NCBI RefSeq assembly: GCF_988243305.1
Contig: NZ_OZ547136.1
DNA length: 64,000 nt
Reading direction: 5' to 3' (one strand)
Shown here: piece after piece, positions 6,328 through 22,360 of the stretch
Numbering within the stretch: the stretch's first letter is position 1
How the letters are laid out: every line of letters starts with the position of its first letter
Made by a program: the position numbers and the translations under genes
The notes under the pieces: model-generated
Told to the model about the DNA's origin: nothing
Seen by the model: only the letters and a program-made list of their open reading frames with translations
Database searches by the model: none

Positions 6328-7154
6328 ACCTCTTGATACGTTATATCTGTGTACAGTTAAGCCCTTAGTATCGATTGATGATTGCCAGGCAACAGATAAT
6401 AAAAAAGAAAAGAACTATTGAAGCCCAAAACCTACGCTTGGACTGTTGTGAATGTTCAATAAGCTTAGTCTTATTTAATGTAAATATTGGTGCTAATTTG
6501 AAATGACGCTTTATTCATGGGAAACGCGTAGCGCAAATCAACTAAAATCAATGTAACTGTTTGTTGTTTAAGGTTTAATTGTCTGTGTCTGATATTTTAT
6601 TGATTGTTTTAAATATTGTTTTTATTGTCATTGTTATAATGTTGGCTATCTATTGCTGAATGGATTCAGCCTTAAAAAGCAGGTTGTTAAGGGATAGACA
6701 TAGAGTAATGACGTGTATGCATAACCAACATCTTTACTCATTATGTCATTGAATGTTGACGCTATGTGTTTATGAGGTTGAGGTATTTTCAGTTGATCTG
6801 GATTGTTAAATTCATATAATGCGCCTTTACTCATGAATGGGCGTCAATACGTAGTGGGAAATTATAAATATTGAAATAGTCCAACTACTTCTTTATTACC
6901 AAAAATGAGTATCTGAATTTTAATATTGCATTCTTGCGTGATTATCTCCTGAGTTTGACTTGTGATTACCTTTTTAAGGTATTTAGCGTAACTGTTTTTG
7001 AGCGAGCATCAGAGGTAAAGATAATCTTTTTGATAGTGATGTGGGATGTTATGCGTATGGCATCGCTGATGTTTATGGTTACCCCTTATGTGTGCTCAGG
7101 AATCCACAGGTAATCACTCATACTGAACAGCGATAAAAGATAAAAGGTGTGTTC

Positions 7155-8243
7155 ATGAATTCATGTGATTTTCGTGTTTTTCTGCAAGAGTTCGGTACAA
7201 CGGTTCATTTGTCATTGCCTGGTAGCGTATCCGAGAAAGAACGACTGCTACTCAAGCTGCTGATGCAGGGAATGTCTGTAACAGAAATATCACAGTACAG
7301 AAATCGCAGTGCAAAGACCATTTCACATCAAAAGAAACAGCTCTTTGAGAAACTGGGGATTCAGAGCGATATTACTTTCTGGCGGGATATTTTCTTTCAG
7401 TACAATCCGGAGATCATATCCGCCACGGGTAATAATAGTCACAAATATATTAATGATAATCACTATCACCATATCGTCACGCCTGAAGCCATCAGTCTGG
7501 CGTTGGAAAACCATGAATTTAAATCGTGGATCCAACCGGTTTTCTGCGCGCAGACTGGGGTACTGACGGGCTGTGAGGTGCTTGTCCGCTGGGAACATCC
7601 ACAAACGGGAATTATCCCACCGGATCAGTTTATTCCTCTGGCGGAGTCATCTGGTCTTATTGTCATAATGACTCGCCAGTTGATGAAACAGACTGCGGAT
7701 ATTCTGATGCCGGTAAAACATTTGCTGCCGGACAATTTCCATATTGGCATCAACGTCTCGGCGGGTTGTTTTTTGGCTGCGGGATTTGAAAAAGAGTGTC
7801 TGAACTTGGTTAAGAAATTAGGTAACGATAAAATCAAACTGGTTCTCGAGCTAACGGAACGTAACCCTATTCCGGTAACGCCAGAAGCCAGAGCGATATT
7901 TGACAGCCTTCATCAGCACAACATTACCTTTGCGCTGGATGACTTTGGTACGGGTTATGCGACCTATCGTTACTTGCAGGCGTTCCCGGTCGATTTTATT
8001 AAGATCGATAAGTCATTTGTGCAAATGGCGAGCGTGGACGAAATATCCGGTCATATTGTGGACAATATTGTCGAACTGGCGCGTAAGCCTGGTCTGAGTA
8101 TCGTGGCGGAAGGGGTAGAAACCCAGGAGCAGGCGGATTTAATGATCGGCAAAGGCGTTCACTTTTTGCAGGGCTATTTGTACTCTCCGCCAGTACCGGG
8201 TAATAAATTTATCTCTGAATGGGTAATGAAAGCAGGTGGTTGA
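7155..8243 (+). CDS. pdeL: c-di-GMP phosphodiesterase with LuxR-type HTH and EAL domain
   Basis: ORF 7149..8243; ATG at 7155 gives MNSCDFRVF; EAL-domain motifs; K-12 yahA position. Confidence 0.93.
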   Translation: MNSCDFRVFLQEFGTTVHLSLPGSVSEKERLLLKLLMQGMSVTEISQYRNRSAKTISHQKKQLFEKLGIQSDITFWRDIFFQYNPEIISATGNNSHKYINDNHYHHIVTPEAISLALENHEFKSWIQPVFCAQTGVLTGCEVLVRWEHPQTGIIPPDQFIPLAESSGLIVIMTRQLMKQTADILMPVKHLLPDNFHIGINVSAGCFLAAGFEKECLNLVKKLGNDKIKLVLELTERNPIPVTPEARAIFDSLHQHNITFALDDFGTGYATYRYLQAFPVDFIKIDKSFVQMASVDEISGHIVDNIVELARKPGLSIVAEGVETQEQADLMIGKGVHFLQGYLYSPPVPGNKFISEWVMKAGG

Positions 8244-8284
8244 TGTAAACCGCTATTCACAGCGCATCGGGAGGTTGGCAGCGA

Positions 8285-9217
8285 TTAATTCTCCCGATGC
8301 AGTAAATCCTGATAGATCCCCGTTAATATGCCATTTGGCGCAAATTGTTTTTTAATCCACTGCGTCACCTGACCGGTGGCAGAGTGCTGGGTCGCCAGTA
8401 ACATGCGTGAATCCTGGCGCGGATTATGGATTTGTCGGGTAACCAGCAGGGATTGCGTCATCGCCTCACGGACCATGTAATCCGGCAAAAACCCAATTCC
8501 TTCACCTAAAATCTGGCACTGACATTTGGTGTTGAAATCTGGCACCAGAATCGACTCCTGCCCATGCAGCAACCAGCCCACTTTTTTATTAATCGTATGC
8601 GCGGTGTCCTCCACCATGATATTAGGATAGAGACGCAGTTGGCTTTCGGCGATCGGCTCCGGCACAAAGGCTAATGGGTGATCCGGGGCGATAGCAAAAG
8701 CCCAGCGAATTGCGCCAATCTCCGTGTAATCAATGCCGCCGCCGTCCAGCAGTGTGTCGGGCGCGCCGATAGCAATATTCGCCTGATTATTAATAATCGC
8801 ATCCCAGACGCCGTTATACACTTCGGTCGTCATGGTAATCTGGCAGGTTGGAAACTGCTTTTTCAGTACCTGTAATAAGCGTGCGGTGTGTTTGGGCGTA
8901 TAAAGCAGTTGGTTAATACAAATGCGCACCCGTGCTTCTATACCCTGCGAAATAGTATCGATGCTGCGTTTGATGGCGTGAAAATCATTCAGCAGGTCGG
9001 TAGCTTTGCGGAAAAAATAACGCCCGGACTCCGTTAACTCAATGCTTCGGGTACTGCGAGTGAACAGCACCACATCCAGCCCTGTTTCCATTCGCTTGAT
9101 GGTGTAGCTAATGGCGGAAGTGGTTAAACCCAACTCTTCTGCGGCTTTACTGAAACTGCCAAAACGCGCAGCGGTAGTAAATGCCAACAGATTCTCTTCG
9201 GTAAAAATTGAGTTCAT
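8285..9217 (-). CDS. yahB: LysR-family transcriptional regulator
   Basis: 310-aa ORF with N-terminal HTH (FSKAAEELGLTTSAISYTIKRME). Confidence 0.92.
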   Translation of the reverse strand: MNSIFTEENLLAFTTAARFGSFSKAAEELGLTTSAISYTIKRMETGLDVVLFTRSTRSIELTESGRYFFRKATDLLNDFHAIKRSIDTISQGIEARVRICINQLLYTPKHTARLLQVLKKQFPTCQITMTTEVYNGVWDAIINNQANIAIGAPDTLLDGGGIDYTEIGAIRWAFAIAPDHPLAFVPEPIAESQLRLYPNIMVEDTAHTINKKVGWLLHGQESILVPDFNTKCQCQILGEGIGFLPDYMVREAMTQSLLVTRQIHNPRQDSRMLLATQHSATGQVTQWIKKQFAPNGILTGIYQDLLHREN

Positions 9218-9308
9218 TAAACCATTCCCGCCATTATCGAATATGAATTTCTCCAGCCATGACTGTAGAGGTATCGGTTAAAGATAGATAATCATTTTTG
9301 AATAACTT

Positions 9309-9806
9309 TTAATACCCGTCGCGTTTAGTCGTCGCTTCGCTTAATTTTTGTCCGCCATATTCTGAAATTATCCCCACGCAGTTACCCGCCAGAAAACCCA
9401 GTAATGTCACCGTCCAGTTCATCCCGCTGGCAAAAAATAGCGTCATGCCGAGAAAGCCTCCGGGAATAAAAGACAGTAAACCGAAACGTCCTTGCCAGAC
9501 CACCACCGCCGAGAAGGGTACAGTCATAATCACGCTCGCCCAGAACGTGGACAATCCACTCACCGAGGCCAGCCAACCGGCAGCCAGCGCGGCGAAAAAC
9601 GCCCACACCATCCCGGAATAATTAACCGCCAGGCTTCTGATAAACCCCGATTTACCGCCGCCTGCGGCATAAAAACTGCAAAAGGCGACGAAGCCAATAG
9701 TTCCTAATAATTCCCATCCCTGAGAGAGCCCGACATGTGAAGACACTAACTGCCAAAGCCCTGCACAAATACCGACGGTGACACCCGTTGCCGTGAGTCC
9801 GTTCAT
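9309..9806 (-). CDS. yahC: small inner-membrane protein
   Basis: 165-aa hydrophobic ORF; synteny. Confidence 0.85.
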   Translation of the reverse strand: MNGLTATGVTVGICAGLWQLVSSHVGLSQGWELLGTIGFVAFCSFYAAGGGKSGFIRSLAVNYSGMVWAFFAALAAGWLASVSGLSTFWASVIMTVPFSAVVVWQGRFGLLSFIPGGFLGMTLFFASGMNWTVTLLGFLAGNCVGIISEYGGQKLSEATTKRDGY

Positions 9807-10063
9807 CTTGTTCCCCTCTGGTTAGACATGGACGAAAGCTACTCTTACATGTGCAGACTATAGAGAAATAAAACCTGATTGAGTGAAAGGGTATCGGGTC
9901 AAAGAAACAAATATTGCACTACCGCACACTGCGAAAAGATTGTTGAACATCATTCAACAAAAAGGCGAAATACGGCGAATTAAATTTAAGCGGGTTCTTT
10001 TATCAGATTATCGTTGCTATTCTCAATTCATCGAAAACAGCCACAAAAATCAGGGGAATGTGA

Positions 10064-10669
10064 ATGACTATAAAAAATCTACCTGCCGACTATTTATTGG
10101 CTGCGCAACAGGGTGATATCGATAAAGTAAAAACATGCCTTGCGCTGGGTGTCGATATTAATACCTGCGATCGTCAGGGGAAAACGGCAATTACGCTGGC
10201 AAGTTTATATCAGCAATATGCTTGCGTTCAGGCATTAATTGATGCCGGAGCAGATATTAATAAGCAAGATCAAATATGTTCAAATCCTTTTTTAATTAGC
10301 TGCCTGACCGGCGATTTAACCCTGTTACGGATTATTTTACCGGCTAAACCCGATCTTAATTGCGTCACCCGTTTTGGCGGTGTCGGCCTGACGCCTGCCT
10401 GTGAAAAAGGCCATTTAAGTATTGTAAAAGAGCTTTTGGCGCATACGGAGATTAACGTTAACCAGACCAACCATGTTGGCTGGACGCCGCTACTGGAAGC
10501 AATTGTGCTTAATGATGGCGGGATTAAACAGCAGGCGATTGTCCAGTTATTGCTGGAACACGGTGCCAGCCCGCACATGACGGATAAATATGGCAAAACG
10601 CCGCTGGAACTGGCGCGGGAACGAGGCTTTGAAGAGATTGCACAGTTACTGATTGCCGCAGGTGCATAA
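10064..10669 (+). CDS. yahD: ankyrin-repeat protein
   Basis: 201-aa ORF with repeated ankyrin-like units (GKTAITLASLY..ALIDAGADIN; GWTPLLEAI; GKTPLELA). Confidence 0.9.
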   Translation: MTIKNLPADYLLAAQQGDIDKVKTCLALGVDINTCDRQGKTAITLASLYQQYACVQALIDAGADINKQDQICSNPFLISCLTGDLTLLRIILPAKPDLNCVTRFGGVGLTPACEKGHLSIVKELLAHTEINVNQTNHVGWTPLLEAIVLNDGGIKQQAIVQLLLEHGASPHMTDKYGKTPLELARERGFEEIAQLLIAAGA

Positions 10670-10708
10670 ACCGGGAGGCTTGCTATCAACACACCAGAAA
10701 GACGGTGT

Positions 10709-11572
10709 GTGTGGGCGCTAACTGCGGATGCTGATTTTCTGGCGCAGCGGGGGCAAGGACAGGTTGAACAGGTCTTTGCCAGAGCGGTAAATATCGCACT
10801 TCCGGCCCGCCAGCAGTTGCTGACGCTGCTTTGTGAAGAGTACGACAATGCGCCAAACAGTTGTCGGTTGGCACTCACTCACTTTGATGGTCTGTTCCGG
10901 CATGGTGATAAGGTTCAGTTTGACGATCAAGGCATTACGGTTGGTCAACATCTTCATATAGAGATGAGTCGTTGTCGGCGTTGGCTGTCCCCAACCTTGC
11001 AAATGACCGCTGTGAATTTTCACCTTATCGCCTGGCAACAGTGGCATGACATTATTCATCAGCACCTGGGGGAAAATGAAACCCTGTTTAATTATTGCGG
11101 CGATAATCCGTTTTATCAGGCGTTAAATAAAGAATTACATATTAAACGACGGGCAGTTATTCAGGCCGTAAACGATAAACAAAATATCGCCTCAGCAGTC
11201 GCCAGTATGATGGGCTTAGGGATTGGCCTTACGCCATCAGCCGACGATTATTTAACAGGTCTGGCGCTTATTTTATTTATTTCCGGACATCCGGCGGAAA
11301 AATACAAAGAGGAATTTTATCTCGGTCTGCAACGCGGCAGAAATAATACCACGTTATTAAGTGCCATAACGCTGGAAGCCGCATTACAACAACGCTGCCG
11401 GGAAAATATTCATCGTTTTATTCATAACATTATTTATGGTGTCCCTGGGAACGCAACTCAGGCAATAGAAAAAATTAAACATATTGGCTCCAGTTCCGGC
11501 TGCGACATGCTGTATGGCATGGCCGATGGTTGTGCGCTGAGCCAAACCTACGGAGGGAATTATGTCAGTTAA
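10709..11572 (+). CDS. yahE: DUF2877-family protein (YlbF paralog)
   Basis: 287-aa ORF, GTG start at 10709; synteny. Confidence 0.85.
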   Translation: MWALTADADFLAQRGQGQVEQVFARAVNIALPARQQLLTLLCEEYDNAPNSCRLALTHFDGLFRHGDKVQFDDQGITVGQHLHIEMSRCRRWLSPTLQMTAVNFHLIAWQQWHDIIHQHLGENETLFNYCGDNPFYQALNKELHIKRRAVIQAVNDKQNIASAVASMMGLGIGLTPSADDYLTGLALILFISGHPAEKYKEEFYLGLQRGRNNTTLLSAITLEAALQQRCRENIHRFIHNIIYGVPGNATQAIEKIKHIGSSSGCDMLYGMADGCALSQTYGGNYVS

Positions 11573-13109
11573 AATAGTCATTAAACCGAATACCTATTTT
11601 GATTCTGTCTCGCTGATGTCTATCTCCACGCGTGCAAATAAACTCGACGGCGTCGAGCAGGCATTTGTGGCGATGGCGACCGAAATGAACAAAGGCGTGC
11701 TGAAGAATTTAGGGCTGCTGACGCCGGAACTGGAGCAGGCGAAAAACGGCGACCTGATGATTGTCATCAACGGCAAAGCGGGCGCAGACAACGAGCAGTT
11801 GCTGGTGGAGATTGAAGAACTGTTCAACACCAAAGCTCAAACTGGTTCACATGAAGCACGCTATGCCACTATTGCCAGCGCCAAAAAGCATATCCCGGAA
11901 AGTAACCTGGCGGTGATTTCGGTCAACGGTCTGTTTGCCGCTCGCGAAGCGCGTCAGGCGCTGCAAAACGATCTTAACGTGATGCTGTTTTCCGATAACG
12001 TCTCAGTTGAAGATGAACTGGCGCTCAAACAGTTGGCCCACGAAAAAGGGCTGCTGATGATGGGGCCAGACTGCGGTACGGCGATTATCAACGGCGCGGC
12101 GCTCTGCTTTGGTAACGCCGTGCGTCGTGGCAACATCGGTATTGTTGGCGCATCCGGCACCGGTAGCCAGGAACTGAGCGTCCGCATTCATGAATTTGGC
12201 GGCGGCGTTTCGCAACTGATTGGCACCGGCGGGCGCGACCTGAGCGAGAAAATCGGCGGCCTGATGATGCTCGACGCTATCGGGATGCTGGAAAACGATC
12301 CGCAAACTGAAATCATTGTGCTTATCTCCAAACCGCCAGCGCCTGCGGTGGCCCGCAAAGTGCTGGAACGCGCACGCGCCTGCCGTAAGCCAGTGGTGGT
12401 CTGCTTCCTCGGTCGTGGCGAAACGCCAGTGGATGAGCAGGGGCTACAGTTTGCTCGCGGCACCAAAGAGGCGGCACTAAAAGCGGTGATGCTCTCCGGT
12501 GTGAAACAAGAACATCTCGACTTGCATACCCTGAACCAGCCGTTGATTGCGGATGTGCGTGCGCGTCTGCAACCGCAGCAGAAATACATTCGTGGCCTGT
12601 TCTGCGGCGGCACGCTGTGTGACGAAACCATGTTCGCGGTGATGGAAAAACATGGCGATGTCTACAGCAACATTCAGCCCGATCCTGAATTCCGCCTGCA
12701 AGATATCAACCGCAGCATCAAACACACCTTCCTCGACTTTGGCGATGACGACTTCACCAACGGCAAGCCGCATCCAATGATTGACCCCACCAACCGTATC
12801 AGCCGCTTGATCGAAGAGGCGCGCGATCCAGAAGTGGCGGTGATCGTGATGGATTTTGTGCTCGGGTTTGGATCGCATGAAGATCCGGTCGGTTCCACCA
12901 TCGAGGCGATCAAAGAGGCGAAAGCGATCGCCGCTGCCGAAGGACGTGAGTTGATCATTCTCGCCTATGTGCTGGGTACCGATCTTGATACGCCATCGTT
13001 AGAACAACAAAGCCAGATGTTGCTTGATGCCGGAGTGATTCTGGCCAGCAGCAGCACCAATACCGGATTGCTGGCGCGTGAATTTATCTGCAAAGGGGAG
13101 GAAGCCTGA
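11562..13109 (+). CDS. yahF: FdrA-like CoA-ligase-fold protein
   Basis: 515-aa ORF; ATG at 11562 preceded by ggaggg; overlaps yahE stop by 11 nt. Confidence 0.88.
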   Translation: MSVKIVIKPNTYFDSVSLMSISTRANKLDGVEQAFVAMATEMNKGVLKNLGLLTPELEQAKNGDLMIVINGKAGADNEQLLVEIEELFNTKAQTGSHEARYATIASAKKHIPESNLAVISVNGLFAAREARQALQNDLNVMLFSDNVSVEDELALKQLAHEKGLLMMGPDCGTAIINGAALCFGNAVRRGNIGIVGASGTGSQELSVRIHEFGGGVSQLIGTGGRDLSEKIGGLMMLDAIGMLENDPQTEIIVLISKPPAPAVARKVLERARACRKPVVVCFLGRGETPVDEQGLQFARGTKEAALKAVMLSGVKQEHLDLHTLNQPLIADVRARLQPQQKYIRGLFCGGTLCDETMFAVMEKHGDVYSNIQPDPEFRLQDINRSIKHTFLDFGDDDFTNGKPHPMIDPTNRISRLIEEARDPEVAVIVMDFVLGFGSHEDPVGSTIEAIKEAKAIAAAEGRELIILAYVLGTDLDTPSLEQQSQMLLDAGVILASSSTNTGLLAREFICKGEEA

Positions 13110-14527
13110 TGAGCCAGTCACTGTTTAGCCAACCATTGAACGTTATTAACGTCGGCATCGCCATGTTTAGCGATGACCTGAAAAAGCAGCATGTAGAAGT
13201 GACTCAACTCGACTGGACGCCGCCGGGGCAGGGCAATATGCAGGTGGTGCAGGCGCTGGATAACATTGCCGATTCGCCGCTGGCAGACAAAATCGCCGCC
13301 GCTAACCAGCAGGCTTTGGAGCGCATTATCCAGTCGCATCCGGTGCTGATTGGTTTTGATCAGGCGATTAACGTGGTGCCGGGTATGACGCCGAAAACCA
13401 TTCTTCACGCCGGACCGCCGATCACCTGGGAAAAAATGTGTGGCGCGATGAAAGGCGCGGTCACCGGAGCGCTGGTGTTCGAAGGGCTGGCGAAAGATCT
13501 CGATGAGGCGGCTGAACTGGCGGCCTCCGGGGAGATCACCTTCTCGCCGTGCCACGAGCACGACTGCGTGGGTTCGATGGCGGGTGTTACCTCGGCCTCG
13601 ATGTTTATGCACATCGTAAAAAACAAAACCTACGGCAACATCGCTTACACCAATATGAGCGAGCAGATGGCGAAGATTTTGCGTATGGGCGCTAACGACC
13701 AGAGCGTGATTGACCGCCTCAACTGGATGCGCGATGTGCAGGGGCCAATGCTGCGCGACGCGATGAAAATTATCGGCGAAATCGATCTGCGCTTAATGCT
13801 GGCGCAGGCGCTGCATATGGGCGATGAATGCCATAACCGCAATAACGCCGGGACGACGTTGCTGATTCAGGCGCTGACGCAGGGGATTATTCAGGCGGGT
13901 TATTCCGTCGAGCAACAGCGCGAAGTGTTTGAGTTTGTCGCCAGCAGCGACTACTTCTCCGGCCCGACGTGGATGGCGATGTGTAAAGCGGCGATGGATG
14001 CGGCGCACGGCATCGAATACAGCACCGTGGTCACCACCATGGCGCGTAACGGCGTCGAGTTCGGCCTGCGGGTCAGCGGATTACCGGGGCAATGGTTTAC
14101 CGGTCCGGCGCAGCAGGTGATCGGGCCGATGTTTGCCGGTTATAAGCCGGAAGATTCGGGGCTGGATATCGGCGACAGCGCCATCACTGAAACCTACGGC
14201 ATTGGCGGATTTGCCATGGCGACCGCGCCCGCGATCGTCGCGCTGGTGGGCGGTACGGTGGAAGAGGCTATCGATTTCTCCCGCCAGATGCGTGAAATCA
14301 CTCTCGGTGAAAACCCCAACGTCACCATTCCGCTGCTCGGTTTTATGGGCGTGCCGTCGGCAATCGACATCACCCGCGTGGGCAGCAGCGGCATTCTGCC
14401 GGTGATCAACACCGCCATCGCCCATAAAGATGCGGGCGTCGGCATGATTGGTGCGGGCATTGTGCATCCACCATTCGCCTGCTTCGAGAAAGCCATTCTC
14501 GGCTGGTGCGAACGTTACGGCGTCTGA
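13109..14527 (+). CDS. yahG: DUF1116-family protein (YlbE paralog)
   Basis: 472-aa ORF; ATG overlaps yahF stop (ATGA). Confidence 0.88.
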   Translation: MSQSLFSQPLNVINVGIAMFSDDLKKQHVEVTQLDWTPPGQGNMQVVQALDNIADSPLADKIAAANQQALERIIQSHPVLIGFDQAINVVPGMTPKTILHAGPPITWEKMCGAMKGAVTGALVFEGLAKDLDEAAELAASGEITFSPCHEHDCVGSMAGVTSASMFMHIVKNKTYGNIAYTNMSEQMAKILRMGANDQSVIDRLNWMRDVQGPMLRDAMKIIGEIDLRLMLAQALHMGDECHNRNNAGTTLLIQALTQGIIQAGYSVEQQREVFEFVASSDYFSGPTWMAMCKAAMDAAHGIEYSTVVTTMARNGVEFGLRVSGLPGQWFTGPAQQVIGPMFAGYKPEDSGLDIGDSAITETYGIGGFAMATAPAIVALVGGTVEEAIDFSRQMREITLGENPNVTIPLLGFMGVPSAIDITRVGSSGILPVINTAIAHKDAGVGMIGAGIVHPPFACFEKAILGWCERYGV

Positions 14528-14621
14528 CCTGCAAACGCACCTTACGATCCCTTCTCCCTTCTGGGGAGAGGGGCAACCTCACTCTCATAACCCCATCACC
14601 CTCTGTAGCGGACATAACAAC

Positions 14622-15572
14622 ATGAAAGAGCTTGTGGTCGTTGCCATTGGTGGCAACAGCATTATCAAAGATAACGCCAGCCAGTCGATTGAGCATCAGG
14701 CGGAGGCGGTGAAGGCCGTCGCCGATACGGTGCTGGAAATGCTGGCTTCCGATTACGACATTGTGCTGACCCACGGCAACGGGCCGCAGGTCGGGCTGGA
14801 TTTACGCCGCGCGGAGATTGCCCACGAGCGCGAAGGGCTGCCCTTAACGCCGCTGGCGAACTGTGTGGCGGATACGCAAGGCGGCATTGGCTATCTGATC
14901 CAGCAGGCGCTGAACAACCGGCTGGCGCGTCACGGCGAGAAAAAAGCCGTCACCGTGGTGACTCAGGTGGAAGTGGATAAAAACGATCCGGGATTTGCTC
15001 ATCCCACCAAGCCCATCGGCGCATTCTTTAGTGACAGCCAGCGTGACGAATTACAAAAGGCAAATCCTGACTGGCGTTTTGTTGAAGATGCCGGACGGGG
15101 CTATCGCCGCGTGGTCGCCTCGCCGGAACCGAAACGTATTGTCGAAGCACCTGCCATTAAGGCGCTGATCCAGCAAGGCTTTGTGGTGATTGGCGCGGGC
15201 GGCGGTGGAATTCCGGTAGTGCGTACTGAAGCGGGGGATTACCAAAGCGTGGACGCGGTTATCGACAAAGATCTCTCTACCGCGCTACTGGCTCGCGAAA
15301 TTCACGCCGACATTCTGGTGATCACCACGGGCGTGGAAAAAGTGTGTATTCACTTTGGCAAGCCGCAGCAGCAGGCGCTGGATCGGGTGGATATTGCCAC
15401 CATGACCCGCTATATGCAGGAAGGGCATTTCCCACCCGGCAGCATGTTGCCAAAAATCATCGCCAGCCTGACGTTCCTGGAGCAGGGCGGTAAAGAAGTG
15501 ATTATCACCACGCCGGAATGCCTGCCTGCGGCGCTGCGTGGTGAAACGGGCACCCATATTATTAAAACGTAA
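14622..15572 (+). CDS. yahI: carbamate kinase-like protein
   Basis: ORF 14448..15572; internal ATG at 14622 gives MKELVVVAIGGNSI (amino-acid kinase fold), 316 aa. Confidence 0.9.
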   Translation: MKELVVVAIGGNSIIKDNASQSIEHQAEAVKAVADTVLEMLASDYDIVLTHGNGPQVGLDLRRAEIAHEREGLPLTPLANCVADTQGGIGYLIQQALNNRLARHGEKKAVTVVTQVEVDKNDPGFAHPTKPIGAFFSDSQRDELQKANPDWRFVEDAGRGYRRVVASPEPKRIVEAPAIKALIQQGFVVIGAGGGGIPVVRTEAGDYQSVDAVIDKDLSTALLAREIHADILVITTGVEKVCIHFGKPQQQALDRVDIATMTRYMQEGHFPPGSMLPKIIASLTFLEQGGKEVIITTPECLPAALRGETGTHIIKT

Positions 15573-15581
15573 GGACGTAAG

Positions 15582-16964
15582 ATGAAAGAAAACAATAGCC
15601 GCCGTGAGTTTCTGAGCCAGAGCGGTAAGATGGTCACCGCCGCCGCGCTGTTTGGTACCTCTGTGCCGCTCGCCCATGCGGCAGTCTCTGGCACAATCCA
15701 TTGCGACGCGAATAACACCATGAAAATCACTGACCCGCACTACTATCTCGACAACGTGCTGCTGGAAACCGGTTTTGACTACGAAAACGGTGTGGCAGTA
15801 CAGACCCGCACGGCGCACCAGACCGTAGAGATTCAGAACGGCAAAATTGTTGCCCTGCGCGAGAACAAGCAGCATCCGGACGCCACGCTGCCGCACTATG
15901 ACGCTGGCGGTAAGCTGATGCTGCCCACTACCCGCGACATGCATATTCATCTCGACAAAACCTTTTACGGCGGGCCGTGGCGCTCGCTCAATCGTCCGGC
16001 AGGCACCACCATCCAGGACATGATTAAGCTTGAGCAGAAAATGCTGCCGGAACTGCAACCGTATACTCAGGAGCGGGCGGAAAAACTGATCGATTTATTG
16101 CAATCGAAAGGCACCACCATTGCCCGCAGCCACTGCAATATCGAACCGGTTTCCGGCCTGAAAAATCTGCAAAATTTGCAGGCGGTTCTGGCGCGACGTC
16201 AGGCGGGCTTCGAGTGTGAAATTGTCGCCTTCCCGCAGCACGGTTTGCTGCTGTCGAAATCAGAACCCTTAATGCGCGAAGCGATGCAGGCGGGGGCGCA
16301 TTACGTCGGCGGGCTGGACCCGACCAGTGTTGATGGCGCGATGGAAAAATCCCTCGACACCATGTTCCAGATTGCGCTGGACTACGACAAAGGCGTTGAT
16401 ATTCACCTGCACGAAACCACTCCGGCAGGCGTGGCAGCCATCAATTATATGGTTGAAACGGTGGAGAAAACGCCGCAACTGAAGGGCAAGCTGACCATCA
16501 GCCACGCCTTTGCGCTGGCAACGCTCAATGAGCAACAGGTAGATGAACTGGCGCACCGGATGGCGGCGCAGCAAATTTCTATCGCCTCGACGGTGCCGAT
16601 TGGCACGCTACATATGCCGCTTAAACAACTGCACGACAAAGGCGTAAAAGTGATGACCGGCACCGACAGCGTTATCGACCACTGGTCGCCTTACGGCCTG
16701 GGCGACATGCTGGAAAAAGCCAATCTCTACGCGCAGCTCTATATTCGTCCTAACGAACAGAATTTGTCCCGTTCGCTGTTTTTAGCCACTGGCGATGTAT
16801 TGCCGCTCAACGAAAAAGGCGAGCGCGTCTGGCCCAAAGCGCAGGATGACGCCAGCTTTGTGCTGGTGGACGCCTCCTGTTCCGCCGAGGCGGTGGCGCG
16901 TATCTCGCCGAGAACGGCGACGTTCCATAAAGGGCAACTGGTGTGGGGGAGTGTGGCAGGTTGA
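15582..16964 (+). CDS. yahJ: amidohydrolase/deaminase with twin-arginine signal
   Basis: 460-aa ORF; N-terminal SRREFLSQSG...AHA Tat-type signal; metal-dependent hydrolase motifs. Confidence 0.9.
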   Translation: MKENNSRREFLSQSGKMVTAAALFGTSVPLAHAAVSGTIHCDANNTMKITDPHYYLDNVLLETGFDYENGVAVQTRTAHQTVEIQNGKIVALRENKQHPDATLPHYDAGGKLMLPTTRDMHIHLDKTFYGGPWRSLNRPAGTTIQDMIKLEQKMLPELQPYTQERAEKLIDLLQSKGTTIARSHCNIEPVSGLKNLQNLQAVLARRQAGFECEIVAFPQHGLLLSKSEPLMREAMQAGAHYVGGLDPTSVDGAMEKSLDTMFQIALDYDKGVDIHLHETTPAGVAAINYMVETVEKTPQLKGKLTISHAFALATLNEQQVDELAHRMAAQQISIASTVPIGTLHMPLKQLHDKGVKVMTGTDSVIDHWSPYGLGDMLEKANLYAQLYIRPNEQNLSRSLFLATGDVLPLNEKGERVWPKAQDDASFVLVDASCSAEAVARISPRTATFHKGQLVWGSVAG

Positions 16965-17262
16965 TGCGCATTTGATATGTCTGCAACGGTGAATCGTAAG
17001 AGATTTAAGCCCCAGGGAGTGGGGCGGGAATGGTTTGTTAATGAATGATCCTGAACTTTATAATCTCCCGGCATAATTTCCAGGGGATTATTTGAGAGAA
17101 ATACACAAAAGTGAGTTTTAACAAAGGTATTTATCAGGCCATAAATGTGACCTGCTTCGGATAAAAAAGATTCAGTATCGAAAAACCAATGATACTCTTG
17201 CTGATGGTTATCAACAGTAATTAAGATGTGATTTGTTTTTCCGTAATCGCGAAAATATTCTC

Positions 17263-17673
17263 ATGACCATAAAAGAAAAAATCTCACAAAAATATCCCCA
17301 TGCTTCCTTTTGTACTTTTGGCGATTCAGCAGCGTTGGCCGATCACCTCGCAACGTTGATTGCGACTGGTGTTAAAACAGCTTCCTGTGGTTCGCTGGCG
17401 GGATGTATTGAAGACAACGCATTTCCGCTGATTGGTGAGTATAAGATTGTAGAAAATAGCCGTGGTGAGCCTGTCTGTGTTATCAGAGTGATTGGCCTGC
17501 ATTTACTGCGCTTTTCTGATGTCACCGCGGAGCTTGCCCGTAAGGAAGGTGAAGGTGACCTCAGTCTTGAATATTGGCGTAATGAACACCGTCGTTTTTT
17601 CCAGGCAGAAGGATGCTATTCACCCGAAATGGACGTTATCTTTGAAGAATATGCCCTTATTGACGTTGTGTAG
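17263..17673 (+). CDS. ASCH-domain-like small protein (strain-variable)
   Basis: ORF 17233..17673 (TTG); ATG at 17263 gives MTIKEKISQKYP; not in K-12 at this locus as far as I recall. Confidence 0.6.
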   Translation: MTIKEKISQKYPHASFCTFGDSAALADHLATLIATGVKTASCGSLAGCIEDNAFPLIGEYKIVENSRGEPVCVIRVIGLHLLRFSDVTAELARKEGEGDLSLEYWRNEHRRFFQAEGCYSPEMDVIFEEYALIDVV

Positions 17674-17923
17674 ATAACTATTTTTCTACGCGAAATAAGC
17701 TCACAAACATAAAGTATCGCTAATTTTGTTTATTTTGCTATTTTTTACGTGATGATTGTCACACTTATTGTTACTGCCCGTTTTGTCCATATTTATAACC
17801 AAATTTTTAATAGCTGCCTGAAATAGGGCTGTTTATTCTGCATAAAAATATTCGAAAATTCTTATTCTCTCCAGCGCGCTAATTTGGGCGAACACTTCCT
17901 GACTACCCTGCAATGAGGCTGAA

Positions 17924-18910
17924 ATGATGAATAAACGTTTTGTTATCAATATGGTGTCTTCGCTGTTATTAGGCGCTGCGCTAATTTCTGCGCCGCTCCA
18001 GGCAGCGGAAAAAGTCGTGGTGAATATCTCTAAAGTCGATGGTATGCCGTGGTTTAATCGCATGGGCGAAGGTGTGGTTGAGGCGGGTAAAGCCTTTGGT
18101 GTTAATGCGTCACAGGTGGGGCCTTCAAGTACTGATGCTCCGCAACAGGTTAAAATTATTGAGGATTTAATCGCCCGTAAGGTTAATGCAATTACAATTG
18201 TGCCAAACGATGCCAACGTGCTGGAACCGGTATTCAAAAAAGCGCGAGATGCCGGAATTGTGGTTCTGACCAACGAATCCCCCGGTCAGCCAAGTGCTAA
18301 CTGGGATATCGAAATCATTGATAACGAAAAATTTGCCGCTGAATATGTTGAGCATATGGCGAAACGCATGGGTGGCAAGGGCGGCTATGTGATTTACGTG
18401 GGTAGTTTGACCGTGCCGCAGCATAACTTATGGGCTGACTTGCTGGTGAAATACCAGAAAGAGCATTACCCGGATATGCATGAAGTTACCCGCCGCATGC
18501 CGGTTGCCGAGAGTGTGGATGACTCACGTCGTACCACACTGGACCTCATGAAAACCTATCCTGACTTGAAAGCGGTTGTCTCCTTTGGTTCAAACGGTCC
18601 GATTGGCGCGGGACGTGCAGTGAAAGAGAAACGGGCGAAAAATAAAGTCGCAGTCTATGGCATGATGATCCCTTCACAGGCGGCATCACTGATTAAAAGT
18701 GGTGATATCACCGAAGGGATTACTTACGATCCGGCCTCTGCAGGTTACGCACTCGCGGCCGTCGCCAGCACGTTGCTGAAGGGTGAAGAGATCAAACCTG
18801 GATTAGAAATGGAGAATCTCGGTAAGGCCGACGTAGATATGGATAAGCGAATTATCCGTTTCCATAAGGTATTACTGGTCAACAAAGACAATATCGACTC
18901 ACTTTATTAA
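17924..18910 (+). CDS. periplasmic sugar-binding protein, LsrB/RbsB-like (CUT2 ABC family)
   Basis: 328-aa ORF with signal peptide ...APLQA|AEK; C-terminus VLLVNKDNIDSLY resembles LsrB-type proteins. Confidence 0.8.
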   Translation: MMNKRFVINMVSSLLLGAALISAPLQAAEKVVVNISKVDGMPWFNRMGEGVVEAGKAFGVNASQVGPSSTDAPQQVKIIEDLIARKVNAITIVPNDANVLEPVFKKARDAGIVVLTNESPGQPSANWDIEIIDNEKFAAEYVEHMAKRMGGKGGYVIYVGSLTVPQHNLWADLLVKYQKEHYPDMHEVTRRMPVAESVDDSRRTTLDLMKTYPDLKAVVSFGSNGPIGAGRAVKEKRAKNKVAVYGMMIPSQAASLIKSGDITEGITYDPASAGYALAAVASTLLKGEEIKPGLEMENLGKADVDMDKRIIRFHKVLLVNKDNIDSLY

Positions 18911-18920
18911 TCCATTTCTT

Positions 18921-18945
18921 CGGGGCGAAAGCCCCGATTCTTATT
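18921..18945 (+). terminator. intercistronic hairpin (attenuator/terminator-like)
   Basis: cggggc-gaaa-gccccg perfect stem with GNRA loop followed by attcttatt, between the binding-protein and ATPase genes. Confidence 0.5.
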
Positions 18946-18958
18946 GCCAGGGGATGCT

Positions 18959-20443
18959 ATGGAAACCTTCCTTTCCCTTCGTCATATCAACAAAACGTTT
19001 CATGCCACGCGAGCGCTGCGCGATGTTTCTCTCGACTTTATGTCGGGTGAGGTGCACTGCCTTGCCGGGCAAAACGGCTGTGGTAAATCGACGTTGATTA
19101 AAATTATGTCCGGTGTTTATCGCCCGGATGAGGGGGCGGAAATTACGCTTGGTGGGAAAAACTGGTCAAAGCTGACACCCGCCGCTTCGGTGGCGCAGGG
19201 GATTCAGGTGATTTATCAGGACCTCTCTTTATTTCCTAACCTGAGTGTCTGGGAGAATATCGCCGTGAATCACTATCACCACGGTCTGTTTGTTAACCGC
19301 CGTCGTCTGCGTGAGGTGGCGCAGGCGGCAATGACCAGTATTAACGTCACATTGCCACTGGATACGCTCGTTTCTGAGCTTTCAATTGCCCGCTGTCAGC
19401 TGGTGGCAATTTGCCGTGCACTGGCGCAGGACGCACGGTTGATCGTGATGGATGAACCAACCGCTTCGCTGACCCATCAGGAAGTGCAAGGGTTATTACA
19501 GGTGGTGCATCAATTGCGGGAACGCGGGATCTGCGTGGTCTTCGTCAGTCATCGTCTGGAAGAAGTGATGGAAGTTTCCGACCGTATTTCAGTGCTGAAA
19601 GATGGTGAGCTGGTCGGGACCTTTCCGGCCGCAGAGATGACCACAAAACAACTCAGTTTTCTGATGACCGGCCAGGAGTTCGAATATCAGGTACGAGAGT
19701 TGTGGCAGGGAAAATCCAGCCCCCCGGTGCTGGAGGTGCGTAATTTAAGTCGTCATGGGGAATATCAAAATATTAACTTGCGGGTGGAAGCGGGCGAAGT
19801 GGTGTCGATTGTTGGCCTGCTTGGTGCGGGGCGCACGGAATTATGTCTGAGTCTGTTTGGTATGACCCGACCGGATGCTGGTGAGATCCTCATCAACGGT
19901 CAGCCGGTTACACTGCATAGTAACCAGGACGCCATCCGCCACGGTATTGGTTATGTTTCGGAAGATCGCATGTCGCGCGGTTTGGTGATGGCGCAATCTA
20001 TTGAAGACAACATCATTAGCACTGTTTTTCACAAGGTAAAAGATCGCTTCGGCTTTCTGAGTGAAGCTAAAGTGCGTGACCTGGTGGACAGGCTAATCAA
20101 GGCATTGACCATCAAAGTCTCTGACCCACATCTCCCGGTGAATACGCTTTCCGGGGGTAACGCGCAGCGAGTATCGATCGCCAAATGGCTGGCGATTGGG
20201 CCACGACTGTTGATTCTCGATAGCCCGACTGTCGGTGTTGATATCGCCAACAAAGCAGGAATATACGGCATTATCAGCGATCTGGCGGCTCATGGCATTG
20301 CGGTATTGATGATCTGCGATGAAATTGAAGAAGCGTGGTATCAAAGCCACCGGATTTTGGTAATGCAAAAAGGTCAGATCACCCATAGCTTCCTGCCTGA
20401 CAGCAGTTCTCAGGCCAGGATTGCGGAGGTGGTAAATGGCTGA
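18959..20443 (+). CDS. sugar ABC transporter ATP-binding protein (two nucleotide-binding domains)
   Basis: ORF 18944..20443; ATG at 18959 (METFLSL); Walker A GQNGCGKST; duplicated NBD typical of RbsA/LsrA. Confidence 0.85.
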   Translation: METFLSLRHINKTFHATRALRDVSLDFMSGEVHCLAGQNGCGKSTLIKIMSGVYRPDEGAEITLGGKNWSKLTPAASVAQGIQVIYQDLSLFPNLSVWENIAVNHYHHGLFVNRRRLREVAQAAMTSINVTLPLDTLVSELSIARCQLVAICRALAQDARLIVMDEPTASLTHQEVQGLLQVVHQLRERGICVVFVSHRLEEVMEVSDRISVLKDGELVGTFPAAEMTTKQLSFLMTGQEFEYQVRELWQGKSSPPVLEVRNLSRHGEYQNINLRVEAGEVVSIVGLLGAGRTELCLSLFGMTRPDAGEILINGQPVTLHSNQDAIRHGIGYVSEDRMSRGLVMAQSIEDNIISTVFHKVKDRFGFLSEAKVRDLVDRLIKALTIKVSDPHLPVNTLSGGNAQRVSIAKWLAIGPRLLILDSPTVGVDIANKAGIYGIISDLAAHGIAVLMICDEIEEAWYQSHRILVMQKGQITHSFLPDSSSQARIAEVVNG

Positions 20444-21407
20444 ACTGAAAAAACGCCATGAATTCTGGCTGGCATTACTGATTGTGGTGCTGTTTGTTGG
20501 CCTTGCCTGGCGCAGCGACGAGTTTCTGACATTCGGTAATTTGTACGATCTCGCCAATAACTATGCCATGTTGACTATTCTCGCCTGTGGTTTGTTTGTG
20601 GTGTTGATTTCCGGTGGAATTGATATTTCGTTTCCAGCAATGACCATCATTGCCCAATACGGCATGGTGCTGTTGCTGCAAAAAATTGGTGGCAACTTCG
20701 CTGTCGCGTTTGCCCTGGCGGGCGGCATCGGCATTTTACTTGGCTTAATTAACGCCTTACTGGTTAATCGCCTACGGGTGCCTTCTATCATCATCACTAT
20801 CTCGACGCTGAATATTTTCTATGGCCTGCTGTTATGGTTGAGTAAAGGTGTGTGGCTGTACGACTTTCCGCCGTGGTTTGAGCAGGGGGTTATGTTGTTC
20901 AAGTACACCGATGCTGATGGCTATGACTATGGCCTTGGTCTACCGCTGATCGCCATGATTACGGTGGTGCTGCTAACAGCGTTTATCATGAATTTCACCA
21001 GTGTAGGGCGCAAAATTTATGCCCTTGGCGGGAACCGCGAATCAGCCAGTCGCATCGGCTTTAGTGTGCTGAAACTGCAACTTTTCGTCTATGGCTATAT
21101 GGGATTGATGTCTGGTGCTGCGGGTGTAGTGCAGTCGTGGACGGTGATGACTGTCGCCCCCGATTCTCTTCTGGGTTATGAGCTGACAGTACTGGCTGCG
21201 GTGGTGCTTGGCGGCACTAGTTTGCTCGGCGGGCGCGGCACGTTAACCGGTACTTTGCTCGGCGTGGTGTTGTTGGCAGTGATGCAAAACGGGCTAAATT
21301 TATTGGGAGTCTCGTCTTACTGGCAAACATTGATCACCGGCATCATCATCGTTGCCAGCATTAGTGCCACGGCGTGGAGTCAGCATCAGAACCGGAGTCT
21401 GCTATGA
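20436..21407 (+). CDS. sugar ABC transporter permease
   Basis: 323-aa multi-TM ORF; start overlaps ATPase stop by 8 nt. Confidence 0.85.
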   Translation: MAELKKRHEFWLALLIVVLFVGLAWRSDEFLTFGNLYDLANNYAMLTILACGLFVVLISGGIDISFPAMTIIAQYGMVLLLQKIGGNFAVAFALAGGIGILLGLINALLVNRLRVPSIIITISTLNIFYGLLLWLSKGVWLYDFPPWFEQGVMLFKYTDADGYDYGLGLPLIAMITVVLLTAFIMNFTSVGRKIYALGGNRESASRIGFSVLKLQLFVYGYMGLMSGAAGVVQSWTVMTVAPDSLLGYELTVLAAVVLGGTSLLGGRGTLTGTLLGVVLLAVMQNGLNLLGVSSYWQTLITGIIIVASISATAWSQHQNRSLL

Positions 21408-22360
21408 AAAAATCGTGGCGTAACAACGTTGAGTTTTACTTGATCGGCCTGCTGGTGCTAACTGTTGCAGCCTTCAGCATTACTATGCCGGAGATTTTCT
21501 GGTCGATAAGTAATTTCCAGTCCGTCGCTTCGCAAATGCCCGTGCTGGGCATTCTGGCGTTGGCTATGGCGGTGACCATGCTTTGCGGTGGCATTAACTT
21601 GTCAATTATAGCCACTGCTAACGCCTGTTCACTGGTGATGGCGTGGGTGGCGACTCAGTATCCACCGGGTATTGCTACGGTTGTCGCTACGCTGCTGGCG
21701 GGCGCTGGCGCGGCGGTGATAATCGGTTTATGTAACGGCGTATTGATTGCTGGTATTCGAGTGTCGCCAATTCTTGCAACACTCGGGATGATGACGTTGC
21801 TCAAAGGGGTAAATATTCTGGTGACAGGCGGTAGCGCCATTGCCAATTATCCCTCATGGGTGCTGTGGTTGAATCATGCACAGTGGTTCGGTGTTCCGCT
21901 ACCGATGTGGTTGTTTACCGCAGTGTCGCTAGGGCTGTGGATATTGCTGGAGAAAACGCCGCTCGGTAAATCCATTTATCTGATTGGTTCTAACGAACGA
22001 GCAACACTTTACTCCGGCATTAACACTCGTCGGGTGCTGATTTGGGTGTATGTCATTTCCGCCTTGCTTTGTGCGGTAGCGGCATTTTTGATGATGTCGA
22101 AACTCAACTCGGCTAAGGCCTCTTATGGCGAATCGTACTTGCTGGTGTCAATCCTCGCGGCAGTACTCGGCGGGGTTAATCCGGACGGCGGCAGCGGGCG
22201 GATAATTGGTATGGTGCTGGCGCTGTTTCTTCTGCAAATTATTGAAAGCGGCTTCAATATTCTCGGTATAAGCCCCTACCTGACGATGGCCTTATGGGGA
22301 ACGTTGCTGCTCTGTTTCATTCAGGCTCGCGGCATGTTGGGGCTGGATCGGGTGGTTTAA
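21404..22360 (+). CDS. sugar ABC transporter permease
   Basis: ORF 21374..22360; ATG at 21404 (MKKSWRN) overlaps upstream stop as ATGA, ggag 6 nt upstream. Confidence 0.82.
   Translation: MKKSWRNNVEFYLIGLLVLTVAAFSITMPEIFWSISNFQSVASQMPVLGILALAMAVTMLCGGINLSIIATANACSLVMAWVATQYPPGIATVVATLLAGAGAAVIIGLCNGVLIAGIRVSPILATLGMMTLLKGVNILVTGGSAIANYPSWVLWLNHAQWFGVPLPMWLFTAVSLGLWILLEKTPLGKSIYLIGSNERATLYSGINTRRVLIWVYVISALLCAVAAFLMMSKLNSAKASYGESYLLVSILAAVLGGVNPDGGSGRIIGMVLALFLLQIIESGFNILGISPYLTMALWGTLLLCFIQARGMLGLDRVV

Follow-up and report, generated by a model that had tools for sequence, protein, structure and literature searches.

What does the yah gene cluster of Escherichia coli do? In the 64,000-nucleotide (nt) stretch analyzed here (the window), taken from contig NZ_OZ547136.1 of RefSeq assembly GCF_988243305.1, six plus-strand open reading frames (ORFs), yahD, yahE, yahF, yahG, yahI, and yahJ, occupy positions 10064 to 16964 beside the divergently oriented regulator gene yahB. 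The region is E. coli chromosomal DNA; three RefSeq genomes match it at 100% identity, as does strain NRZ14408, and 4,998 of 5,426 complete genomes (about 92%) cover 80% or more of it. The RefSeq annotation gives the same genes, and the ORFs, this annotation, and domain matches agree on the six co-directional genes and on the domains that an earlier reading of the letters alone (the sequence-only reading) had described. A search of the literature retrieved no function, inducer, or regulon for yahB to yahJ. Here we propose, at a probability of about one-half, that yahDEFGIJ and yahB encode a catabolic, energy-conserving nitrogen-scavenging route centered on an AllFGH-type carbamoyltransferase, with a layout resembling that of the deiminase pathways.

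When compared with the K-12 reference proteins AllF, AllG, AllH, and AllK, YahF aligned with AllF (FdrA) at 39% identity across 513 residues (E = 2e-102), YahG with AllG (YlbE) at 45% (E = 4e-118), YahE with AllH (YlbF) at 25% (E = 2e-10), and YahI with AllK (YbcF) at 38% (E = 1e-57). These alignments mark the four Yah proteins as full-length paralogs of the four All proteins. The sequence-only reading had recognized the same domain set in fdrA-ylbE-ylbF-ybcF, had staked its case on detectable homology between the yah and fdrA/ylb proteins, and had linked the latter module to oxamate or carbamoyl-group metabolism that supplies carbamate kinase with carbamoyl phosphate. The homology extends over full lengths, with E values from 2e-102 to 2e-10, and that link was sound: purified AllF-AllG-AllH is an oxamic transcarbamylase that catalyzes the reversible reaction of oxalurate and phosphate to carbamoyl phosphate and oxamate, and AllK is a catabolic carbamate kinase (PMC11326118, PMC9843812). 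AllFGH was identified in 2024 as a transcarbamylase without kinship to the ornithine transcarbamylase/aspartate transcarbamylase (OTCase/ATCase) fold (PMC11326118), and AllS is the activator of allFGHK (PMC12535856). The yah genes go unmentioned in these AllFGH and AllK papers (PMC11326118, PMC9843812, PMC12535856).

Adjacent genes of the FdrA/AllF, AllG (PF06545), and AllH (PF11392) families form an AllFGH-type trio in the yah cluster, and a carbamate kinase gene belongs to the same operon (yahI, 94 nt past yahG). The likeness to allFGHK consists of this side-by-side arrangement of the same three families and a carbamate kinase, of homology over full lengths, of an AllS-type LysR regulator, and of a phosphohistidine loop that is deleted from the FdrA-type subunit of both modules. 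YahB, itself uncharacterized (PMC8464067, PMC9068703), had its best NCBIfam matches to AllS (268 bits; cutoff, 372) and then to PunR (238 bits), both under the cutoff, and is an AllS paralog. The two modules differ in gene order, which is E-F-G in yah (H-F-G in all nomenclature) and F-G-H in all, and in the placement of about 45 residues that end AllF and form the N terminus of YahG. The yah cluster also adds an ankyrin protein, a deaminase, and a dedicated permease (gone from E. coli). It is not beside the allantoin genes, being located between betT/pdeL and yahK, away from allDCE, and it represents an orthologous group of its own, to which Bacillales proteins also belong.

YahG was searched against 1.8 billion cluster representatives. 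One representative (P0121, Bacillales) was 76% identical; all others were at most 49% identical, with AllG (45%) in this second tier. The 76% group comprises Lysinibacillus, Psychrobacillus, Neobacillus, Paenibacillus, and Brevibacillus, in which the neighboring genes are orthologs of the whole yah set (ankyrin, AllH-like, AllF-like, AllG-like, and carbamate kinase), with a divergent PucR-type regulator upstream. Identities between Bacillales and E. coli were 54% for the ankyrin protein and YahD (Paenibacillus), 57% for the carbamate kinase and YahI (Paenibacillus), and 28% for the AllH-like protein and YahE. Identities of 25 to 45% to the All proteins versus 54 to 76% to the Bacillales yah-type proteins place the yah genes outside the orthologs of allFGH. 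The "second copy" of the module that had been proposed at first gives way to a separate, old orthologous system of Enterobacterales and Bacillales, not a simple or recent duplicate of the all genes.

We surveyed 80 species-representative genomes, from which 71 loci had enough flanking sequence to be scored. The conserved layout, a minus-strand yahB followed by yahD-(yahE)-yahF-yahG-(permease)-yahI-yahJ, was found across Enterobacterales (from Escherichia to Providencia, Proteus, and Serratia) and in Aeromonas. A divergent yahB ortholog was present in all 71 informative loci, and yahJ directly followed yahI in 69 of them. The cluster was also detected in diverse metagenome loci with G+C contents of 34 to 74%, and the regulator of yah-type clusters was either LysR (AllS-like) or PucR.

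One rival explanation is that oxalurate itself is the substrate and YahEFG a second oxamic transcarbamylase, that is, an AllFGH isozyme for other conditions (for example, aerobic growth, exogenous oxalurate or parabanate, or oxidized purines) with no new substrate chemistry. We regard this as possible, and as a good deal short of probable. It would account for the full-length identity of 39 to 45% to AllF and AllG and for the purine-catabolic appearance of the Bacillales clusters, in which PucR, an NCS1 allantoin-permease-like protein, and an M20 allantoate-amidohydrolase-like enzyme occur. Additionally, YahG is about 72% identical to the protein of PDB entry 3clq, which we take to come from Enterococcus faecalis, and enterococci have an inducible oxamate transcarbamylase. 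A search for the genomic context of the 3clq relative retrieved no protein matching it at more than 75%, and its relatives in a metagenome scan were all at or below 75%. In a triple allFGH deletion, plasmid-borne allGH restores 16% and allFG 7% of the oxamate output (PMC11326118, Table 3), a residual rescue that could be explained if YahF and YahE replaced the missing subunits. In that study, the chromosomal paralogs yahF and yahE are not raised as a possible source of the rescue.

The isozyme explanation fits less well with the coexistence of the all and yah systems in E. coli and Citrobacter and with the possession by yah of its own regulator, ankyrin component, permease, and deaminase, all of which are foreign to the allantoin route. 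Nor were the inspected clusters ever embedded among allantoin-to-oxalurate genes; no allD-like or allantoinase gene was found within 10 kb of the inspected Bacillales-type yah clusters. Furthermore, the triple allFGH deletion by itself yields no oxamate despite the presence of yahEFG (PMC11326118), which reflects either a different YahEFG substrate or mere nonexpression. A YahEFG substrate other than oxalurate and a putative periplasmic first step, both in line with the sequence-only reading, would be reasonable and agree with the evidence.

The subunit named by RefSeq as "acyl-CoA synthetase FdrA," YahF, scored 491.5 bits against the NCBIfam FdrA subfamily model NF004760 (cutoff, 433) and matched PDB entry 3dmy (E = 2e-82). 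If the RefSeq name were taken literally, the cluster would activate an organic acid with CoA, in keeping with the Pfam CoA_binding and Ligase_CoA matches of YahF and with its similarity to succinyl-CoA synthetase alpha (E = 8e-18). We find this scarcely credible. Its paralog AllF is a demonstrated transcarbamylase subunit (PMC11326118), the cluster has no gene for a beta subunit, and five residues spanning the phosphohistidine of E. coli SucD (GHAGAI) are deleted in YahF, AllF, and the three orthologs aligned with them; nor do these sequences preserve the Gly-rich motif that binds CoA near the N terminus. Because the phosphohistidine and the CoA motif that characterize succinyl-CoA synthetase alpha and acyl-CoA synthetases are both missing, the RefSeq name is unsupported for YahF. 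The GPxC and SGT...E motifs are kept; in succinyl-CoA synthetase, the latter segment holds the phosphoryl group. A site for phosphate or an acyl phosphate from which an activated acyl group is attacked would fit the AllFGH reaction.

The most conserved protein of the system is YahG, on the orthologs of which PF06545 (AllG/DUF1116) was detected. Its N terminus (residues ~12 to 53; window positions 13109 to 13270) is homologous to the C-terminal ~45 residues of AllF (L002, 18100 to 18345; E = 5e-8), and the gene boundary between F and G has therefore moved. FdrA-AllG fusion proteins of ~1,000 residues occur elsewhere (e.g., P0132, P0133, and P0136), and in Zophobihabitans entericus (L068, ~7590 to 10000) yahE and yahF are apparently fused in a stop-free stretch of 799 codons. 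On account of the two kinds of fusion and the shifted F/G boundary, we argue that the subunits form one physical complex. YahE matched PF11392 (AllH/DUF2877) at an E value of 4e-28, and its structural model (predicted local distance difference test score, 92.9) had no fold relative in PDB. It is the fastest-evolving component, with 35 to 64% identity in the species survey where YahG shows 86 to 97%, and its gene is absent from 21 of the 71 loci (Enterobacter, Leclercia, Lelliottia, Silvania, and Aeromonas). YahE is also the least essential component of the system.

YahD gave ankyrin-repeat matches and is 65% identical to its Erwinia ortholog and 54% identical to that of Paenibacillus. The ankyrin protein is always present in yah-type clusters and is a conserved core component across phyla. 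Because of this constant presence and of 54% identity between phyla, YahD is most simply a candidate extra (fourth) subunit or scaffold. The idea that it is a chaperone or hitchhiker partner of YahJ in twin-arginine translocation (Tat) was considered and judged unlikely, as YahD orthologs occur in Firmicute clusters without YahJ. YahI scored 649 bits against the carbamate kinase subfamily model NF009007 (cutoff, 266) and fell just under the equivalog cutoff of TIGR00746 (arcC; 346.4 versus 358.25). Its assignment to the carbamate kinase family is safe, although its exact function is not certified by these models.

If YahEFG and YahI form the lower part of a route, YahJ would be its entry enzyme. 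The N terminus of YahJ (MKENNSRREFLSQSGKMVTAAALFGTSVPLAHA, with predicted cleavage before the following A) contains an SRREFL twin-arginine motif, a hydrophobic stretch, and an AHA-A cleavage site. The Tat signal claimed in the sequence-only reading is thus borne out, and the motif recurred in 80 of 80 YahJ orthologs, each with the hydrophobic region and a cleavage site rich in Ala, the solitary orthologs of Erwinia, Xenorhabdus, and Shewanella included. YahJ is listed as a Tat substrate, and in a mouse model a yahJ deletion mutant competed slightly less well (competitive index, 0.70; P = 0.02) (PMC7549933).

The catalytic domain of YahJ belongs to Amidohydro_3/PRK06846, and among solved structures it came closest to 6nbo (E = 4e-44) and AtzC (E = 3e-30), with cytosine deaminases next (CodA, E = 1e-15). 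In an alignment with 6nbo and AtzC (2qt3), YahJ keeps the DMHIHLDK, AFPQHG, DIHLHE, ISHAF, and GTDSVIDHW motifs, which place it in the mononuclear subgroup. Equivalents of the HxH, Lys, Gln, metal His, SHA His, Asp, and Trp residues of AtzC and CodA are retained; we take DMHIHLDK to correspond to AtzC H60, H62, and K65, the Gln of AFPQHG to AtzC Q160 and CodA Q156, and the Asp and Trp of GTDSVIDHW to AtzC D303 and W309, with the His of SHA likewise matched. YahJ differs from these enzymes in its strand-5 motif (HLHE, a mix of AtzC HIHD and CodA HCDE), in the replacement of AtzC N304, R306, and F308 by S, I, and H, and in its Tat signal peptide, AtzC and CodA being cytoplasmic. Scores against cytosine deaminase models (103, 83, and 70 bits versus cutoffs of 438, 483, and 403) also place it outside the CodA- and AtzC-specific groups. 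Taken together, these features mark YahJ as a mononuclear enzyme for hydrolytic deamination or dealkylamination, with an amino-substituted heterocycle or an amidine as its predicted substrate, and not as a binuclear ring-opening enzyme of the hydantoinase/allantoinase type. The amidohydrolase assignment made earlier from the letters alone stands, with the refinement that the residues are of the AtzC/cytosine deaminase type and not those of a ring-opening, ureide-forming enzyme. Metal-dependent bile-salt hydrolases (2026 preprints) were considered as a family for YahJ and set aside; they are larger, belong to another amidohydrolase group, and contain alpha and beta zinc ions, and YahJ is unmentioned in their description.

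YahJ-type enzymes are found in Proteobacteria, with more distant YahJ-like genes in metagenome clusters (G+C content, 52 to 70%). In Firmicute-type clusters, the place of YahJ is held by an unrelated 150-residue CDA-fold deaminase (dCMP_cyt_deam_1), whose best family match is TadA, far under the cutoff of the TadA model; the same replacement was seen in one enterobacterial-type metagenome locus (L163). Because non-orthologous displacement is a classical sign of a genuine pathway step, the deaminase is likely part of the pathway. Other distributions point the opposite way. No deaminase gene is adjacent in IncF plasmids and some clusters, and Paenibacillus and Brevibacillus clusters hold the ankyrin, E, F, G, permease, and carbamate kinase genes but no yahJ. 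Conversely, YahJ occurs without yahEFGI in Erwinia (a LysR gene, an ankyrin gene, and yahJ, which overlap), and yahJ stands alone in Xenorhabdus and Shewanella. Such cases would be expected if the operon combined two unrelated functions, a yahD-yahJ periplasmic deaminase module for nitrogen scavenging or the detoxification of amino-heterocycles and a yahEFGI carbamoyl phosphate module inserted between its genes. We consider this division unlikely in view of the position of yahJ straight after yahI in 69 of 71 loci, of the CDA-fold deaminase that often fills the place of an absent YahJ, and of the ankyrin gene, which travels with the E, F, and G genes in YahJ-less Firmicutes and so encodes no YahJ-specific partner.

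A transporter is the remaining conserved component. In 55 of the 71 species loci, a 516-residue multipass membrane protein is encoded between yahG and yahI. This permease is 68 to 71% identical between Enterobacterales and Bacillales and 62 to 100% identical when Pasteurellaceae and Rhizobiales are included. Searches of Pfam, NCBIfam, and PDB sequences gave no match to it, even at an E value of 10; its link to purine permeases comes from source labels (xanthine permease; AGZA; adenine/guanine/hypoxanthine permease) and from one PF00860 match on a homolog only. Among yah-type clusters generally, the transporters are this AzgA-like permease, an NCS1 protein with allantoin permease as its top match (442 bits, under the cutoff), or both. 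The permease is missing from Escherichia, Kluyvera, Klebsiella/Raoultella, Pseudocitrobacter, and Citrobacter amalonaticus, and a tblastn search detected no remnant of it in the window. The ancestral yah cluster held a permease that E. coli has since lost.

The permease and yahC are mutually exclusive: among the 71 loci, 16 have only yahC, 55 have only the permease, and none has both or neither. In the 16 permease-less loci, yahC is placed between yahB and yahD. The swap was probably a single event, because the clusters of the permease-less group are very similar; the exclusivity may reflect that one replacement or a functional substitution by yahC. Separately, a copy of the cluster that resembles the Citrobacter one and has 82% nucleotide identity to the chromosome is present on IncF plasmids of E. 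coli, namely, pAMSC2 (L007, 1854 to 8970) and about 70 others. This copy consists of the ankyrin, DUF2877, FdrA, DUF1116, permease, and carbamate kinase genes, with no yahJ after them and with insertion sequence elements downstream. Strains with the plasmid copy regain a permease.

Loss of the permease from the chromosome could mean that the cluster survives in E. coli only as a cryptic remnant, in decay and no longer functional. The absence of the gene throughout Escherichia, Kluyvera, Klebsiella/Raoultella, and Pseudocitrobacter, the K-12 spacer with its repetitive extragenic palindromic (REP) elements and doubtful yahH (PMC11551758), and the want of a known phenotype would agree with decay, which we nevertheless hold to be very improbable. 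About 92% of complete genomes have all six ORFs intact, and the yahJ deletion has the competitive index cited above. Ratios of nonsynonymous to synonymous substitution rates (dN/dS) relative to Escherichia albertii were 0.047 for yahD, 0.18 for yahE, 0.034 for yahF, 0.028 for yahG, 0.015 for yahI, and 0.041 for yahJ, and those relative to Kluyvera and Citrobacter were 0.02 to 0.25. Purifying selection on the six genes is strong, also in the lineage without the permease. Given these low ratios despite the missing permease, the E. coli cluster is not decaying.

Judged from homology and gene context, the nitrogen-scavenging route that we favor would proceed in four steps. Tat-exported YahJ would first act in the periplasm on an amidine or a purine-related N-heterocycle, from which it would strip an amino or alkylamino group by hydrolysis. 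In most genera, the product would then enter the cell through the 516-residue AzgA-like permease of the cluster; in Escherichia, another entry route would be needed, possibly YahC or a housekeeping purine permease. An N-acylurea (oxalurate or a close analog) would form, either at once or once the ring had opened spontaneously or through an unlinked enzyme, and YahE-YahF-YahG, probably with YahD as fourth subunit or scaffold, would split it with phosphate into carbamoyl phosphate and an amide, YahF contributing a succinyl-CoA-synthetase-alpha-like phosphate/acyl-phosphate site without phosphohistidine. Finally, YahI would move the phosphate to ADP, yielding ATP, NH3, and CO2.

The input of this pathway is probably purine related. 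Besides the regulators and transporters of the Bacillales clusters, one Bacillales cluster encodes an M20 enzyme that passes the allantoate-amidohydrolase subfamily model. In a metagenome locus (L094, 7614 to 11428), an AtzD/TrzD ring-opening amidohydrolase (350 bits) is encoded directly upstream of an AllF-AllG pair (48% identity to YahG), with no AllH or carbamate kinase gene nearby. A third E. coli module, in an island of extraintestinal pathogenic E. coli, adjoins a RutB-like hydrolase and an NCS1 permease (PMC3349570, PMC12928451), and nitrifiers have allFGHK homologs beside biuret and triuret genes (PMC12625717). Because its relatives adjoin AtzD/TrzD-type, RutB-like, and biuret/triuret genes, the AllFGH-type module has been reused for different ureides.

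In its layout, the proposed route resembles the arginine and agmatine deiminase pathways, in which hydrolytic deamination, carbamoyl transfer by phosphorolysis, ATP formation by a carbamate kinase, and transport (there by an antiporter) are likewise encoded in one operon, with NH3 and ATP as the expected products. The resemblance is one of analogy in layout only: the yah transcarbamylase is of the AllFGH type and not of the OTCase/ATCase fold, and the yah deaminase belongs to the amidohydrolase superfamily or the CDA fold, is not guanidino-group modifying, and is predicted to be periplasmic in Proteobacteria. E. coli has a further parallel in ygeW-yqeA, which pairs an orphan transcarbamylase with a third carbamate kinase paralog in presumed purine-related catabolism (PMC11326118, PMC3423039). 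YgeW differs in having the classical OTCase-type fold and no sequence kinship to YahEFG.

Several observations weigh against this route. The E. coli cluster encodes no ring-opening enzyme, and the link from a deaminated heterocycle (a cyclic ureide) to a terminal N-acylurea is consequently missing. Possible bridges are spontaneous opening of the deaminated product, an unlinked enzyme, or an acyclic substrate; parabanate, for instance, opens spontaneously to oxalurate. The role of YahJ is separable, as its occurrences without yahEFGI indicate, and no permease gene accompanies the chromosomal cluster of E. coli. Of 71 loci, 21 are without yahE though allH is needed for full AllFGH activity, the triple allFGH deletion produces no oxamate with yahEFG in place, and a 2024 census still counts the yah genes as uncharacterized (PMC11551758).

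A more specific version of the proposal can be put forward tentatively, as something we think doubtful but worth stating. The yah genes would then encode a third deiminase-type pathway of substrate-level phosphorylation, in which a deaminase leads to an N-acylurea, a four-component YahD-E-F-G carbamoyltransferase cleaves it, a new permease family provides uptake, and ATP is gained. The candidate deaminase, periplasmic in Proteobacteria or cytoplasmic in Firmicutes, would act on a purine-derived amino- or imino-heterocycle; candidate compounds are an oxidized-guanine product, an ammelide-like triazine, and an iminoparabanate-type compound.

The yahDEFGIJ cluster is the closest sister system of AllFGHK; almost all E. 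coli strains have it, as do numerous other Enterobacterales and Bacillales. The AllFGH work of 2024 makes it directly testable. Demonstration of the substrate would assign functions to six or seven uncharacterized E. coli genes at once, would test the AllFGH type as a general N-acylurea phosphorylase, and would provide a function for a bacterial ankyrin protein and for a widespread permease family without a Pfam or NCBIfam model. It might also reveal the use of purine-derived or triazine-like nitrogen compounds by gut bacteria. For such study, E. coli K-12 is less suitable than permease-bearing species (for example, the Citrobacter freundii group, Enterobacter, and Serratia).

The features of the locus are listed in Table 1.

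Table 1. Features of the yah locus (window coordinates, except for the permease genes, which are located in other loci)
Feature	Coordinates	Strand	Description
yahB	8285-9217	-	Divergent LysR-type regulator, likely local regulator of the operon
yahC	9309-9806	-	Small protein, DUF1097 according to RefSeq annotation
yahC-yahD intergenic region	9807-10063		Presumed divergent promoter and YahB-binding region, from position alone
yahD	10064-10669	+	201 residues; ankyrin repeats; first gene of the cluster; no signal peptide
yahE	10709-11572	+	287 residues; GTG start; predicted AllH-family (DUF2877) subunit
yahF	11562-13109	+	515 residues; predicted FdrA/AllF-family subunit; succinyl-CoA-synthetase-alpha-like fold, phosphohistidine loop absent
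yahG	13109-14527	+	472 residues; predicted AllG-family (DUF1116) subunit
yahG-yahI spacer	14528-14621		94 nt; position of the permease gene in most other genera
yahI	14622-15572	+	316 residues; carbamate kinase paralog
yahJ	15582-16964	+	460 residues; Tat-signal amidohydrolase-superfamily enzyme; signal peptide at ~15582-15680
Permease gene, pAMSC2 (L007)	6431-7981		Example
Permease gene, L008	6942-8492		Example
Permease gene, L093	14195-15754		Example
Permease gene, L092	14230-15777		Example

The junctions between the genes are tight. The 11-nt overlap of yahE and yahF was as claimed from the letters alone; the yahF/yahG junction, read there as ATGA, is in fact TGATG with a 1-nt overlap. Gaps of 39, 94, and 9 nt separate yahD from yahE, yahG from yahI, and yahI from yahJ, respectively. 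Promoter and terminator scans gave nothing beyond shuffled expectation, and a scan with the sigma-70 consensus gave no convincing promoter in the yahC-yahD intergenic region. The yahG-yahI spacer is 421 nt long in K-12 (L176, 8745 to 9165), where it contains the REP elements and the doubtful yahH, versus 94 nt here.

Two minor observations concern the history of the locus. In Pseudocitrobacter (L013 and L014), YahF, YahG, YahI, and YahJ are 96 to 99% identical to those of E. coli and YahC, YahD, and YahE only 55 to 74% identical, a step in identity that suggests recombination or transfer, with the breakpoint between yahE and yahF. In the strain analyzed here, the interval between yahJ and yahK contains an ASCH-domain gene and a four-gene ATP-binding cassette (ABC) transporter (window positions 17233 to 22360) with an autoinducer 2 (AI-2)/ribose-type binding protein, an ATPase, and two permeases; K-12 is without both, and its yahK starts 376 nt after yahJ.

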